Counted from the stretch's first letter, positions 25,454 to 37,440 are shown. The stretch: DNA of 64,000 nucleotides from Escherichia phage Turkey5 (PQ471516.1), one strand, 5' to 3'. A program made the numbers and translations. The notes: generated by a model from the sequence alone, not told the origin.

Positions 25454-25738
25454 ATGAAATCAGAAGATATAGAATTTACATATAGAGTTCTTTATAAAAT
25501 GTATGCAAATCCAGTTGAAAATGATTTCACTTACTATGAAACACTTAGAACAATATGGATGGATTACTTACACAGTATTAAAGATTATTTCATAGGAAAA
25601 CATGTAACTATTAATAACATAAAATATAAATGTACTGATGTTACTAGTTATAGTGGGAAACTATCTATTGAATTTTATCATCAAAATTCTTTTTATAGAA
25701 GATATCTTTTGGAGGTTAATTTGAATGATATTCAGTGA
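25454..25738 (+). CDS. Family-B paralog (FTY family), hypothetical protein
   Basis: DIEFTYRVLYKMY ... YSGKLSIEFYH. Confidence 0.55.
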   Translation: MKSEDIEFTYRVLYKMYANPVENDFTYYETLRTIWMDYLHSIKDYFIGKHVTINNIKYKCTDVTSYSGKLSIEFYHQNSFYRRYLLEVNLNDIQ

Positions 25739-25997
25739 TTTACAATTCACGTATAAATGTATATTCGATATTAAAGCGTCAGATAAATTACTTGAGAATG
25801 TGTGGAGAACATATCTAGAAGAAATACGTGAATATTTTTCGAAAGATGGTGGCTACACTTTTCTTTACAATAACGTAAAGATGGAGTACCAATACCTCCA
25901 TAGTTACAATGGGAGAATCGAGGTTAGATTCTTTTCTAATCAAATTGGTGGAAGGGACTTTCTTTTGGAAGAATTAGATGAATACGAAACAGTATAA
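25725..25997 (+). CDS. Family-B paralog, hypothetical protein
   Basis: DLQFTYKCIFD ... YNGRIEVRFF. Confidence 0.55.
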   Translation: MIFSDLQFTYKCIFDIKASDKLLENVWRTYLEEIREYFSKDGGYTFLYNNVKMEYQYLHSYNGRIEVRFFSNQIGGRDFLLEELDEYETV

Positions 25998-26283
25998 AGA
26001 CTGGCAATTCACATACAGATATTTGTACCGCCAGCACATCGATAGTATAGTTGAGAATGACGCATTTCGAATATTATGGCGTAGAGAGTTAGAAAAGCTT
26101 CGTTCACATTTCGTGGATTCTATATTCACTAAAGATGGTCACATTTTCAAATGCGTTAGTGAGTACAACATTCACTCATATGATGGTAACGTTGCTATAA
26201 GTTTTCATAACATAACTGACGTTGATGATGGAAGAATATATACATACGAGATGACAAAATTACCGGAGAATCTTAGAACATGA
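25978..26283 (+). CDS. Family-B paralog, hypothetical protein
   Basis: DWQFTYRYLYRQ ... YDGNVAISFH. Confidence 0.55.
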   Translation: MNTKQYKDWQFTYRYLYRQHIDSIVENDAFRILWRRELEKLRSHFVDSIFTKDGHIFKCVSEYNIHSYDGNVAISFHNITDVDDGRIYTYEMTKLPENLRT

Positions 26284-26480
26284 TACGCTGTCCACATTGT
26301 AACAGTACTCAAATCGCTCGCTTCCGTCTTGATTCAGACTGGGCTAGTGGTGCTGGTGATTTCTTTCCCGTCAATGATGATGCGGAATATACGGAAGAAC
26401 AACATAAAGATTTCGATAAATCATGGCGACCTGATATTGAATGCTTTTACTGCCTAGTGTGTGGTCGTATCCATGACTAG
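26280..26480 (+). CDS. Small zinc-ribbon protein
   Basis: CPHCNS ... CFYCLVCG (two CxxC pairs). Confidence 0.5.
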   Translation: MIRCPHCNSTQIARFRLDSDWASGAGDFFPVNDDAEYTEEQHKDFDKSWRPDIECFYCLVCGRIHD

Positions 26481-26706
26481 AGGTGAATTAGCCAGACGTA
26501 CATTATCTATGCTTAAAGACTTCAACCACCAAAAAACAACTGAATATTACATTTCAACTTTACTTGATTATTACTACCAGAGAAAAGTAATCCTGGGTCG
26601 TCATGAATTCACAGTACTGCACATGTACAGCAATGGTTTAGTATCTGTTAAAAATGAAACTTATGGTGCACAAATTTTAGCATTAAACATTCTTGGAGAT
26701 ATATAA
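26461..26706 (+). CDS. Hypothetical protein
   Basis: 81-aa ORF. Confidence 0.4.
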   Translation: MVVSMTRGELARRTLSMLKDFNHQKTTEYYISTLLDYYYQRKVILGRHEFTVLHMYSNGLVSVKNETYGAQILALNILGDI

Positions 26707-26879
26707 ATGAGTAATAAACTATTCTTTTTCCTATGGAGTCTTTTCTCTCTTACAGTACTGTCAATTGCAGGTGCTTATTTGTTTTTAAGCGTGGATACAT
26801 GGTATATCAATTTACTATGTCCATTTGTTGCAGTTGGATTGGGATTTACTTTACATAGTGTAATTAAAGACTTTAAAGA

Positions 26880-27170
26880 ATGAATACAGAATCCAGTACT
26901 AAACTGCTACTAAAAGACATAGAATTCACTACAAAGGTTTTATATGAGTACTGGTCAGACAAAATTTTAGTTCAGTGTAATTCTGCTATGACAGATTTAT
27001 ATTTCAATACAGTTGATATTTTTAGAAATGAATTAATGCACAAACCTGTATTGTACAGGAATGAAGAGTACCAAATAGCTGCTGTTTCAACCAGTGCAGG
27101 AATGCTATTCTTGGATATTGAAAATTATAATTCATTTAGACCTGATGTACATTGGAAAACTTTAAGATGA
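26880..27170 (+). CDS. Family-B paralog, hypothetical protein
   Basis: DIEFTTKVLYEYW ... MLFLDIENY. Confidence 0.5.
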   Translation: MNTESSTKLLLKDIEFTTKVLYEYWSDKILVQCNSAMTDLYFNTVDIFRNELMHKPVLYRNEEYQIAAVSTSAGMLFLDIENYNSFRPDVHWKTLR

Positions 27171-27421
27171 ATCACAAACTAATTAATAATACAGCTACTA
27201 TGCTTGCAGATAGTACGTATGAAATGGGGTTTGTCTCTAGGGGAATGCTCAAGCGTGAATTTAGAGATAATATTCAGACATTGTATAAAGAAAAATATCC
27301 AAACGTTATTGAAATATTGTTCACCTTTGATATACGTGTTTGCTTTACGAATTGCAGTAATCAACGTGAGCACTGCCCTTTGGATAAATTTGATATCTAT
27401 TTCTCTACACCAGAGGTTTAA
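27152..27421 (+). CDS. Hypothetical protein
   Basis: 89-aa ORF. Confidence 0.4.
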   Translation: MENFKMNHKLINNTATMLADSTYEMGFVSRGMLKREFRDNIQTLYKEKYPNVIEILFTFDIRVCFTNCSNQREHCPLDKFDIYFSTPEV

Positions 27422-27700
27422 ATGACTCAACTTATTAACTGCAATCTTACCCAGCAGACTATGAGTATGCTTCATAAAAGCCTCCATGAAGAAAATATGA
27501 ACATACAGAATGATTTGAGAATGAAGATAAAAAATAATCTCAATCGAATAATCAATATGTATTACAAGACTAAACACAGTTCTATAATCAGTACATATTA
27601 TGATTATGACCGCATTCGTGTTTCATACATCAACCGTGGCGGCAGTTTATGTGAGTCATACCTTGATACTGTTATTGTTGAAAATATCCGTACAATTTAG
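27422..27700 (+). CDS. Hypothetical protein
   Basis: 92-aa ORF. Confidence 0.4.
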   Translation: MTQLINCNLTQQTMSMLHKSLHEENMNIQNDLRMKIKNNLNRIINMYYKTKHSSIISTYYDYDRIRVSYINRGGSLCESYLDTVIVENIRTI

Positions 27701-35742: not shown

Positions 35743-35744
35743 GC

Positions 35745-35969
35745 ATGTTAGGTTTATTTGGAATTTATGGTTTTGTTGCAGTAACATCTTTTATTTGCAA
35801 TTTGGTAGTACTTTCATTTGGTAAAACAGGCGAGGAAGACTTTGACAGTCGCCTTAAAACTGCTGCACTAATGGCAATACTTTGGCCTGTTACTTTGGTG
35901 TACCTAGGAAACTCATTGGTACAGGACGCTATCGAGAAGTACATTAAGAAATCTAAAAAGGGAGAGTAA
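35745..35969 (+). CDS. Small membrane protein (paralog pair member)
   Basis: GGAGG RBS; MLGLFGIYGFVAV...WPVTL. Confidence 0.5.
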   Translation: MLGLFGIYGFVAVTSFICNLVVLSFGKTGEEDFDSRLKTAALMAILWPVTLVYLGNSLVQDAIEKYIKKSKKGE

Positions 35970-35970
35970 T

Positions 35971-36174
35971 ATGTGGGCTGTTTTTGGGATTTATATTTTG
36001 GTAGTACTGGCAGTATTTGTTTATAACTTCTTCACTAATTACGGTACACAAACACTAAGCATTACTGAGGTTGCAGGTGATTCGGTAGTTTCCGCTATCA
36101 TGTGGCCTGTGAATCTTTTTGTGCAGATTCTATGTATTGTTCCAGGGTTAACCAAGGATATAAAACATGACTAA
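35971..36174 (+). CDS. Small membrane protein (paralog pair member)
   Basis: MWAVFGIYILVVL...WPVNL shares FGIY/WPV motifs with previous gene. Confidence 0.5.
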   Translation: MWAVFGIYILVVLAVFVYNFFTNYGTQTLSITEVAGDSVVSAIMWPVNLFVQILCIVPGLTKDIKHD

Positions 36175-36424
36175 TATAGATAAATCTCATATTCGTTATT
36201 TGTTTTCTTTAGTTGATGATTTTGTACAAGATATCAAGCCCAAGTACATTGGGAAAGAAGTACGTTTGACACATACCAGAGGTTACCATAAACATATCAT
36301 TGAAGATGTTATTCTTCGTAAGGGTGAGTTGTGCTTTAAAGTTTGCAATTACCTTGATGATGGTACGTTTGCTGGTTCTCAAATGGTACATGATGATAAG
36401 ATTATTTGGTGGGATATTGAATGA
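36167..36424 (+). CDS. Family-C paralog, hypothetical protein
   Basis: FVQDIKPKYIGKEVRLTHT. Confidence 0.5.
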   Translation: MTNIDKSHIRYLFSLVDDFVQDIKPKYIGKEVRLTHTRGYHKHIIEDVILRKGELCFKVCNYLDDGTFAGSQMVHDDKIIWWDIE

Positions 36425-37164
36425 AACATTTCTTAGAAGTAACTGTTCCAGATGATAAAGAACTATATATTGTGGGCGACATTCATGGTAATGCAAAACT
36501 ATGGGATATAACTAAAACAGAATTTGGCATTACTTCTGATGATTATGTTTTTAGCTTAGGTGATCTAATCGACCGAGGAACTCAAAGTGCTAAGTTACTT
36601 TTTGAGTTCCTTTTTGCCGATAACCGTTTCATGATTATCGGCAATCATGAACAACTATGTGTTGATTCTGAAAAGTACAGAGACTGGCATCACTGCTGGT
36701 TAATGAATGGTGGAGATAAGTTCATCGAGGAAATCGGTGATACTGGTATTCAGTTCTTTCGACAGTACTTAAATCAGTTACCATCAATCATCCAAATCAA
36801 CCACAGAGGTCTGAAGATTGGACTCGTTCATGCTGGTGTTGAACTGAAGTACCAGGACTGGGATCAGTTTATTTCTGGAACAAAATCGCTTAGTACTGAT
36901 ATAATTGAGTCATTGCTATGGGAACGTAAGACATTTGATTACTGCAAAGGAAACAATGTATATAATGCACCACGCATTCAGGGTGTTGACTACGTTCTTA
37001 GTGGTCATACTGGTGTGGTTGACCCATTGATTTATGGCAATCGCGTATGGATAGACAGTCAATTCATGAGTGGTGATTTAACCGTTGCCACCCCACAAAG
37101 TGGCAAGATGCGTTACTTGCGTCGAGAAAAGGACGATTATTCTTTTAATCGTTTTAAAAGGTAA
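36421..37164 (+). CDS. Ser/Thr protein phosphatase (PPP family, lambda-phosphatase-like metallophosphoesterase)
   Basis: GDIHGN, GDLIDRG, GNHE motifs in canonical order. Confidence 0.8.
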   Translation: MKHFLEVTVPDDKELYIVGDIHGNAKLWDITKTEFGITSDDYVFSLGDLIDRGTQSAKLLFEFLFADNRFMIIGNHEQLCVDSEKYRDWHHCWLMNGGDKFIEEIGDTGIQFFRQYLNQLPSIIQINHRGLKIGLVHAGVELKYQDWDQFISGTKSLSTDIIESLLWERKTFDYCKGNNVYNAPRIQGVDYVLSGHTGVVDPLIYGNRVWIDSQFMSGDLTVATPQSGKMRYLRREKDDYSFNRFKR

Positions 37165-37167
37165 ATT

Positions 37168-37440
37168 ATGCACGAAGAGATACAACAATACCTAACTAAA
37201 CGCAACAATTTTGAAAGTATGATTTCATCGATAATTCAAGATTATCGAAATGAAGTTCATGCGTATCTATCTGACAAAATTGTTGGGAAACAAGTAATGT
37301 TTCAGTTAGAAGATGGCATTAATCCAGCAGGTATTCTAACGCGTATCGTCACTATGTCATATAATACTATCTACGTAGAAATCGAGTACAGTGGTAATAG
37401 ATTATATCAAACGGATATTAAGTACGTTACGTTTTTATAA
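37168..37440 (+). CDS. Family-C paralog, hypothetical protein
   Basis: YLSDKIVGKQVMFQ. Confidence 0.45.
   Translation: MHEEIQQYLTKRNNFESMISSIIQDYRNEVHAYLSDKIVGKQVMFQLEDGINPAGILTRIVTMSYNTIYVEIEYSGNRLYQTDIKYVTFL

Follow-up and report, generated by a model that had tools for sequence, protein, structure and literature searches.

Old, clade-specific families of small genes, several of them probably branches of one superfamily, around the RNA-repair genes of an Asteriusvirus jumbo coliphage

The region at positions 25454-37440 of Escherichia phage Turkey5 (PQ471516.1), counted within the 64,000-nucleotide stretch of DNA analysed here (the window), carries two clusters of small open reading frames (ORFs), all on the plus strand, which surround the RNA-repair genes for an RnlA-type RNA ligase (29771-30913, + strand) and a polynucleotide kinase/phosphatase (32009-32953, + strand) as well as a Ser/Thr phosphatase gene (36421-37164, + strand). 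Taking all lines of evidence together, we consider it fairly probable that these small genes represent old clade-specific multigene families, several of them branches of a probable superfamily, and that they encode small binding proteins made early in infection. The window phage is an Asteriusvirus (121Q/PBECO4-like) jumbo coliphage. The region shares 96% DNA identity with Escherichia phage vB_EcoM_JNE01 (JNE01), and other Asteriusvirus jumbo phages (121Q, PBECO4, G17 and others) match it at ~84% over the central third only, from RnlA to the kinase. The same gene layout is present in 121Q, ph0011, WPEC5, phAPEC6, the RaK2-like Klebsiella phage RCIP0023 and three metagenomic contigs, and the small-gene region is flanked by conserved core genes, namely Dam/cytidylyltransferase, RnlA, kinase and phosphatase.

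Paralogy among the small genes

The original prediction had sorted twelve of the small ORFs into family B, family C, a pair of membrane proteins and two adjacent genes with an EEDL-type N-terminus, a grouping that pairwise identities at background level were to refute. All twelve ORFs were recovered on the plus strand; for the first EEDL gene the longest ORF starts at TTG 33771, and ATG 33804 is the start used in the JNE01 annotation. When the entire 64-kb window was translated in six frames, the strict motifs by which the groups had been described were confined to the named genes, although 25978, 26880 and 37168 fit them loosely. The motif [DE][IL][EQ]FTY[RK] fits 25454 and 25725 and is replaced by the variants DWQFTYR in 25978 and DIEFTTK in 26880, while Y.G[KRN][LIV].[IV].F fits 25454, 25725 and 25978 and not 26880. 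Similarly, [EQ]D[LIF]...Y[LIV]GK.V fits 33017, 33267 and 36167, with IVGKQV alone in 37168; FGIY and WPV occur in both membrane genes, and EEDL[RK].L in both genes of the EEDL pair. Smith-Waterman scores were then compared with composition-preserving shuffles over 435 pairs (Bonferroni level ~1e-4), and 11 of the 12 genes are linked to one or more others at or near this level rather than at background.

The core of family B consists of the genes 25454-25738 (+ strand, 94 amino acids (aa), gp425-type), 25725-25997 (+ strand, 90 aa) and 25978-26283 (+ strand, 101 aa, gp422-type), which are solidly linked to one another (z 11-14, p 1e-7 to 1e-8) and match the family phrog_21004 of the PHROGs database significantly (E 5e-11, 5e-7 and 2e-4, respectively), each over ~80 of 101 profile positions. 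Gene 25725 additionally reaches an hhalign probability of 97.5% with the 25454 group. The fourth gene, 26880-27170 (+ strand, 96 aa), is a divergent and only moderately supported member, with p ~1e-5 to 25454, p 0.004-0.02 to the other two genes and E 0.12 to phrog_21004; it scores E 3e-5 with a hidden Markov model (HMM) of the three core genes.

Family C was likewise upheld for three of its four proposed members, namely 33017-33274 (+ strand, 85 aa, gp445-type, phrog_29519), 33267-33518 (+ strand, 83 aa, gp446 ortholog, phrog_33398) and 36167-36424 (+ strand, 85 aa, gp454 ortholog, phrog_37322), which are linked pairwise (33017/33267, p 2e-5 to 6e-5; 33267/36167, p 1e-5; 33017/36167, p 6e-5 to 8e-4). 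Their core HMM retrieves gp445-type proteins of 121Q at E 1e-7 to 1e-8, and 36167 also has weak matches to the PHROGs of 33017 and of two further genes, 31682 and 35380. The fourth gene, 37168-37440 (+ strand, 90 aa, gp456 ortholog), is at background against every family C gene in the pairwise test (p 0.06-0.24) and joins weakly, at profile level only, with an hhalign score of 25.1 to family C (E 4.9e-4, probability 32%; best reversed decoy 18.2), and its ortholog group reaches E 6e-4 to 0.017 with the superfamily HMM described below (first decoy 0.15). The relation of 37168 to family C, and to the superfamily, is marginal at best. No single PHROGs profile covers all four proposed family C genes, whose best matches are the four families 29519, 33398, 37322 and 38615.

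Both two-gene groups lie above chance. The EEDL pair comprises 33804-34103 (+ strand, 99 aa) and 34091-34417 (+ strand, 108 aa, gp449 ortholog), linked at p 7e-5 to 9e-5, with an hhalign probability of 58% for the second gene. The membrane pair comprises 35745-35969 (+ strand), a small protein whose sequence holds two hydrophobic segments and whose gp453-type orthologs are 49-59% identical, and its divergent second copy 35971-36174 (+ strand), which is 33% identical to its neighbour (p 3e-5; hhalign 92.6%). By phmmer, 35971 is only distantly related to the gp453-type membrane gene of which JNE01, 121Q, ph0011 and WPEC5 have one each, and for 35971 itself these four phages gave no BLAST match at E 1e-3; a tblastn search of a 50,697-phage collection returned no Asteriusvirus match and nothing better than E 0.04. 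The gene looks gained, or uniquely kept, in the window phage. The 58-aa membrane protein 26707 was considered as a further relative of this pair, but its hhalign probability of only 9.6% is below significance. The membrane pair is a family separate from the superfamily.

An all-against-all scan added relationships that had not been listed before, namely 27152/27422 (p 6e-6), 31421/35257 (the 35380 gene; p 4.5e-5) and 31682/36167 (p 1.4e-4). The adjacent pair at 27167-27421 and 27422-27700 (both + strand) has an hhalign probability of 92.6%, and both of its genes belong to phrog_32563. At least 17 of the ~30 small genes at 24-38 kb have a detectable relative within the region. True paralogy is well supported for both families, B and C, for the EEDL and membrane pairs and for two additional pairs. 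As such, the proposal that duplication is a general property of this accessory region holds for the breadth of the paralogy, but not for a process still under way, as the copies are ancient.

Age of the duplications

By tblastn, family B occurs at 1-4 places per record in 34 of 34 Asteriusvirus records (96 places in total), and each Asteriusvirus genome has one ortholog of 33267, at ~40% identity in most. The three family C groups correspond one-to-one to gp445, gp446 and gp454 of 121Q. The paralogs of the window occupy the same positions as their orthologs in 121Q, ph0011 and WPEC5 at only 30-58% identity, and are closer to these syntenic orthologs than to their own neighbours. Gene 25454, for example, has 40-42% identity to its gp425-type ortholog and 28% to 25725, and in a neighbour-joining tree 25454 joins the gp425 orthologs, and 25978 those of gp422, before either joins its neighbours in the window. 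Recent duplication was ruled out, as the sole DNA repeat between paralogs is a stretch of 35 nucleotides (nt) at 80% identity over the EDL..GKRV motif. Because orthologs group before paralogs and only this one short repeat remains at the DNA level, it is well supported that the duplications predate the split of the sampled Asteriusvirus lineages.

Present-day variation concerns copy number, order and sequence. By local ORF calling and HMM searches, 121Q, ph0011 and WPEC5 have five tandem family B copies plus one outlier, the window and JNE01 have three plus one, and one metagenomic fragment carries at least seven members. The order in the window (gp425-like, gp423/424-like, gp422-like) is reversed relative to 121Q, with two copies absent; this order was read solely from a simple tree built by neighbour joining, for window 25454-26283 against L001 17408-18817. 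It is well supported that copy number and gene order changed, and that some genes were replaced, after the duplications.

Divergence, replacement and recombination

The small paralogs have diverged much faster than the enzymes next to them, a conclusion that is well supported. Against 121Q, the small genes show 30-58% identity or no detectable ortholog, whereas RnlA, kinase and phosphatase show 74-87%, and the four genes between RnlA and the kinase 90-100%. Relative to JNE01, family B has 19.5 nonsynonymous and 5.5 synonymous differences, compared with 73 and 126 in the neighbouring larger conserved genes (Fisher p = 1.9e-4), and the pooled superfamily also differs from the conserved neighbours in this ratio (p = 7e-4). 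The evidence on rates is not one-sided, however, as family C taken by itself shows no difference from its conserved neighbours (p = 0.35) and the counts behind all of these comparisons are small.

Synonymous divergence (dS) between the window and JNE01 is patchy, at ~0-0.15 in most genes, with 0.32 in RnlA, 0.44 in 37168 and 1.48 in 35745 as outliers, a pattern that suggests cassette-like recombination and the replacement of single genes. Because dS jumps from gene to gene, 35971 is confined to the window phage and the family B order is permuted, part of the small-gene diversity reflects gene-scale replacement or recombination rather than divergence in place. One could go further and propose that the tandem copies themselves arose mainly by recombination between co-infecting relatives, with diverged alleles stacked or cassettes swapped, and that duplication and divergence within one genome played the smaller part. 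The mosaic of dS values, the 33% identity of the isolated gene 35971 to its neighbour and the permuted order of family B all fit such an origin, as does the gene at 26280, which shares 70% identity with a Klebsiella phage RCIP0023 gene and has no ortholog in 121Q-type coliphages. Yet the main paralogs of families B and C stand at the same positions in every Asteriusvirus examined, as would be expected of an already duplicated ancestor. Recombination may explain the turnover rather than the origin of the families, and both processes can act together; as the main source of the tandem copies we regard it as a serious but less favoured possibility compared with old duplication.

Evidence for a common superfamily

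The original prediction had treated families B and C and the EEDL pair as separate. This separation probably does not stand, for several of the groups look like branches of one superfamily, which would include B, C, the EEDL pair and the genes 29499, 31682, 31421 and 35380. A shared ancestry of families B and C in particular is, in our judgement, likely. The proteins are probably best described as acidic, ~85-120 aa long, with one or two N-terminal helices followed by a [YF]-x-G-K-x-V junction that leads into strand 1, a beta-hairpin whose turn holds a conserved glycine, and one or two more strands.

Several profile-based results connect the groups. The 33804 and 37168 groups are matched by both B and C profiles above decoy level, and 33804 in particular bridges the two families in sequence searches (family C HMM, E 5.6e-4; family B HMM, E 0.0095, or 0.003 for its JNE01 ortholog); metagenomic intermediates are likewise matched by both profiles. 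Iterative HMM searches that start from 25454 or from 36167 cross between families and recruit zero reversed decoys, while a search seeded with 37168 recruited reversed sequences of its own group and was discarded as evidence. Eight inter-family hhalign scores, including C-31682 (32.0), C-37168 (25.1) and B-C (18.7), exceed the best of 136 decoy comparisons (18.2). In addition, a superfamily HMM built from a pooled alignment of 26 sequences finds ~27 non-training matches ahead of the first decoy and adds the 31421, 35380, 37168, 26461 and 34091 groups, the last with E 0.011 for the 121Q ortholog.

Among the members that had not been listed before, 29499-29774 (+ strand, 91 aa) was recruited without decoys by the iterative search seeded with 36167 and aligns through a G-[TK]-K-V junction, and 31682-31996 (+ strand, 104 aa) is the member closest to family C (hhalign score 32.0, probability 77%). 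The gene 31421-31675 (+ strand, 84 aa), a probable member at E 5e-4 with the superfamily HMM, is paired with 35380-35742 (+ strand, 120 aa, gp452 ortholog, phrog_29135), whose 121Q ortholog scores E 6e-4. In the upstream main array, a 103-aa gene at 2164-2475 matches the family C and superfamily profiles weakly, at E 0.001-0.07, which hints that the superfamily may extend there.

Predicted fold

AlphaFold2 models were obtained for 25454 of family B (predicted local distance difference test score 87) and 33267 of family C (score 92). The former has helices at residues 3-18 and 25-46 and strands at 50-53, 56-66, 69-76 and 85-89, and the latter a helix at 2-27 and strands at 31-35, 43-53, 56-62, 68-71 and 76-79. 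In both models the [YF]-x-G-K-x-V motif marks the passage from helix to strand 1 and a conserved glycine forms the turn of the long hairpin, and the hhalign and MAFFT alignments of B with C agree in matching junction to junction and glycine to glycine. Secondary-structure strings from DSSP, these alignments and Foldseek all place the common fold and the junction and glycine at equivalent positions. In Foldseek searches of BFVD, the family C model matches the 78-aa protein A0A097EY12 of 121Q with template modelling (TM) scores of 0.59/0.62, a protein whose length and identity suggest that it is the family B member gp426, and several ~90-aa proteins of RaK2 with TM up to 0.76; for the family B model, a match was obtained to an 83-aa protein of Asteriusvirus (TM 0.60/0.67). 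Among the weak BFVD matches are proteins that carry the labels KOW, DUF4222 and transcriptional regulator. The family B model has no match among solved structures, and profile searches with the superfamily and family C alignments against the PDB returned noise only.

The case for one superfamily has to be set against several findings that count in the other direction. Direct comparison of B with C by hhalign gives a probability of 5-6%, which is noise level, and HMMs built from B only or C only find each other at the level of reversed decoys. The superfamily rests on bridging sequences, a predicted topology with TM ~0.6 and two short motifs, and small alpha/beta folds can converge. The models were built from shallow family alignments of 16 and 9 sequences, and the likeness of fold between B and C was read from DSSP strings, alignments and Foldseek matches. 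It could be argued on this basis that each group, whether B, C, the EEDL pair or one of the others, is a family of its own without relation to the rest, as first listed, and that the likeness arises only from a tendency of short, AT-rich ORFs in phages to encode a helix and then strands; PHROGs, whose clusters are based on remote homology, also keeps the groups apart. However, neighbours of the same composition (24245, 24528, 28510, 33511 and 27167) were not recruited, the cross-family iterative searches remained free of decoys, the G-K-x-V junction and the hairpin glycine lie at equivalent positions in both models, and the Foldseek matches run both ways at TM ~0.6. Fully separate origins are in our view rather unlikely, and one superfamily remains the reading that we prefer.

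The fold also raises the possibility that these proteins might be Sm/Hfq-like or other small nucleic-acid-binding beta-barrels, which would form rings or dimers acting on RNA and would work with the adjacent RNA ligase and kinase repair genes. In the Sm fold, five strands come after an N-terminal helix. The same order is seen in the family C model and is shared with the Sm/LSm/Hfq, SH3-like and KOW small beta-barrels, and the labels of the weak BFVD matches as well as the position of the genes beside RnlA and kinase point the same way. On the other hand, no LSM or Hfq match in Pfam was found for 26 superfamily members at E up to 1 or for ten window proteins. The helix is 26 residues long, compared with ~10 in Sm proteins, the proteins are acidic, with isoelectric points (pI) of 4.3-6.5 that are unusual among RNA binders, and family B has only four strands behind a helical hairpin. 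We consider such a nucleic-acid-binding role improbable.

Distribution and known relatives

When the pooled profile was run against 1.84 billion representative proteins, 32 matches were obtained at E <=1e-3, and 31 of them are small proteins of Asteriusvirus or RaK2-like phages; the remaining one, the 417-aa protein P0042, is repetitive and of surface type and was set aside as a false positive. A word-indexed homolog search with family B returned 19 proteins, all from the same phage group. Pfam scans of the ten named proteins and of the 26 superfamily members gave nothing credible. The families themselves are already catalogued, in that the window proteins match PHROGs families of unknown function, some of them strongly (E 1e-9 to 1e-54), namely phrog_21004 for B, 29519, 33398, 37322 and 38615 for C, and 32563, 31355, 28139 and 29135 for others. 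These entries give no function and keep the families apart, and they do not mention the paralogy within one genome, the syntenic arrays or the probable superfamily link.

Comeau and co-workers reportedly described, in 2007, plastic (hyperplastic) regions of T4-like phages in which small, variable early ORFs lie between core genes. The clusters described here resemble those regions, as they consist of co-oriented small ORFs between enzymes (RnlA, PseT kinase), vary among close relatives and are associated with host-type promoters. Unlike in the T4 plastic regions, the small ORFs are interrelated and arranged in tandem arrays of 3-7 copies, and their sequence relatives were found only in Asteriusvirus and RaK2-like phages. 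In the related jumbo phage vB_PcaM_CBB, 22 paralogous ORFs have been reported (PMC5259590), which come from the same broad phage group and were read in the same way, as small hypothetical genes that arose by duplication. Our literature searches returned no published description of these particular families and no Asteriusvirus transcriptome. What is new here is the definition of the families, their predicted fold, their distribution and the probable superfamily, while lineage-specific small accessory multigene families are as such a known kind.

Expression and likely role

With a threshold of 11 out of 12 matches, the window (1-64000) has 18 near-consensus sigma-70 promoters on the plus strand and 0 on the minus strand, compared with 1.9 expected from shuffled sequences, and four plus-strand sites, at 2478, 24031, 34414 and 52407, are perfect. 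Of these, the site at 24031-24059 (+ strand, 12/12) lies upstream of the first small-gene cluster and has a perfect counterpart directly upstream of the syntenic cluster in JNE01, 121Q, ph0011, WPEC5 and Klebsiella phage RCIP0023, and the site at 34414-34442 (+ strand, 12/12) lies inside the second cluster and is conserved in JNE01. The whole window looks transcribed early by the host polymerase. For family B, one observation counts against this timing: a terminator-like hairpin at 25416-25433 (+ strand; 7-bp stem with 5 G-C pairs, then TTTTTT) ends 20 nt before the first gene and a strong promoter of the family's own is absent in the window; its early timing is inferred from the region as a whole.

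None of the products gp361-gp392 of phAPEC6, which represent the orthologous clusters, is among its 62 virion proteins (PMC7247149 Table 1), although small proteins can escape mass spectrometry. The superfamily proteins are rich in tyrosine as well as acidic (pI 4.3-6.5) and are without catalytic motifs. Because catalytic motifs are missing, the proteins are not in the virion proteome and the promoters are of host type, we propose that the two clusters are accessory and transcribed early from these promoters, and that their products most likely act as small, early, non-structural intracellular binding proteins. The conserved aromatic and hydrophobic positions most likely form the predicted core, while the remaining positions vary, and each paralog may have its own binding partner in the host or the phage, in the service of host takeover or counter-defence. 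The membrane pair, with its two-pass proteins, probably acts at the inner membrane. In a bolder form of this proposal, which we regard as speculative and rather unlikely as a whole, about half of the ~30 small genes would form one fast-evolving, clade-restricted superfamily of diversified binders, each neutralising a different host factor or defence, and with each change of host the arrays would grow, shrink or be exchanged among phages.

Other features of the region

Neither tRNA nor Rfam searches of the region gave a match, and RNA genes were excluded on this ground. Upstream of the clusters, a gap of ~670 nt at 21951-22626 is without a convincing ORF and likewise without a tRNA or Rfam match; it holds several promoter-like sites and a strong terminator-like hairpin at 21970-21997. 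A very basic 85-aa protein (30940-31197; pI 10.1, net charge ~+13) is 88-93% conserved over Asteriusvirus, unlike its acidic, fast-evolving neighbours, and may bind nucleic acid. The 203-aa protein encoded at 34767-35378 starts with two hydrophobic segments at its N-terminus, which are followed by Pro/Glu-rich, Lys-rich and long Ser/Thr/Asp-rich low-complexity stretches, and it shares only 42-49% identity with its 121Q-type orthologs. The RCIP0023-like gene mentioned above (26280-26480) encodes a 66-aa zinc-ribbon protein with two CxxC pairs; it has the motif CPHCN[SG]TQ in common with a DnaJ-like zinc-finger gene at 37451-37678, and the two genes share 23 nt of DNA at 87% identity.

Implications

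By itself, an array of small duplicated genes is an ordinary feature of large phage genomes, and the roles proposed here are predicted only. Given that ~83% of the predicted proteins of these 350-kb phages are without known function (PMC7247149), the collapse of many small early genes into a few old families would nevertheless leave fewer separate unknowns. Copy-variable arrays with a higher rate of evolution than the genes around them usually indicate host interaction, and the families defined here may represent tractable targets, which is of relevance to the phage-therapy candidates in the genus Asteriusvirus.

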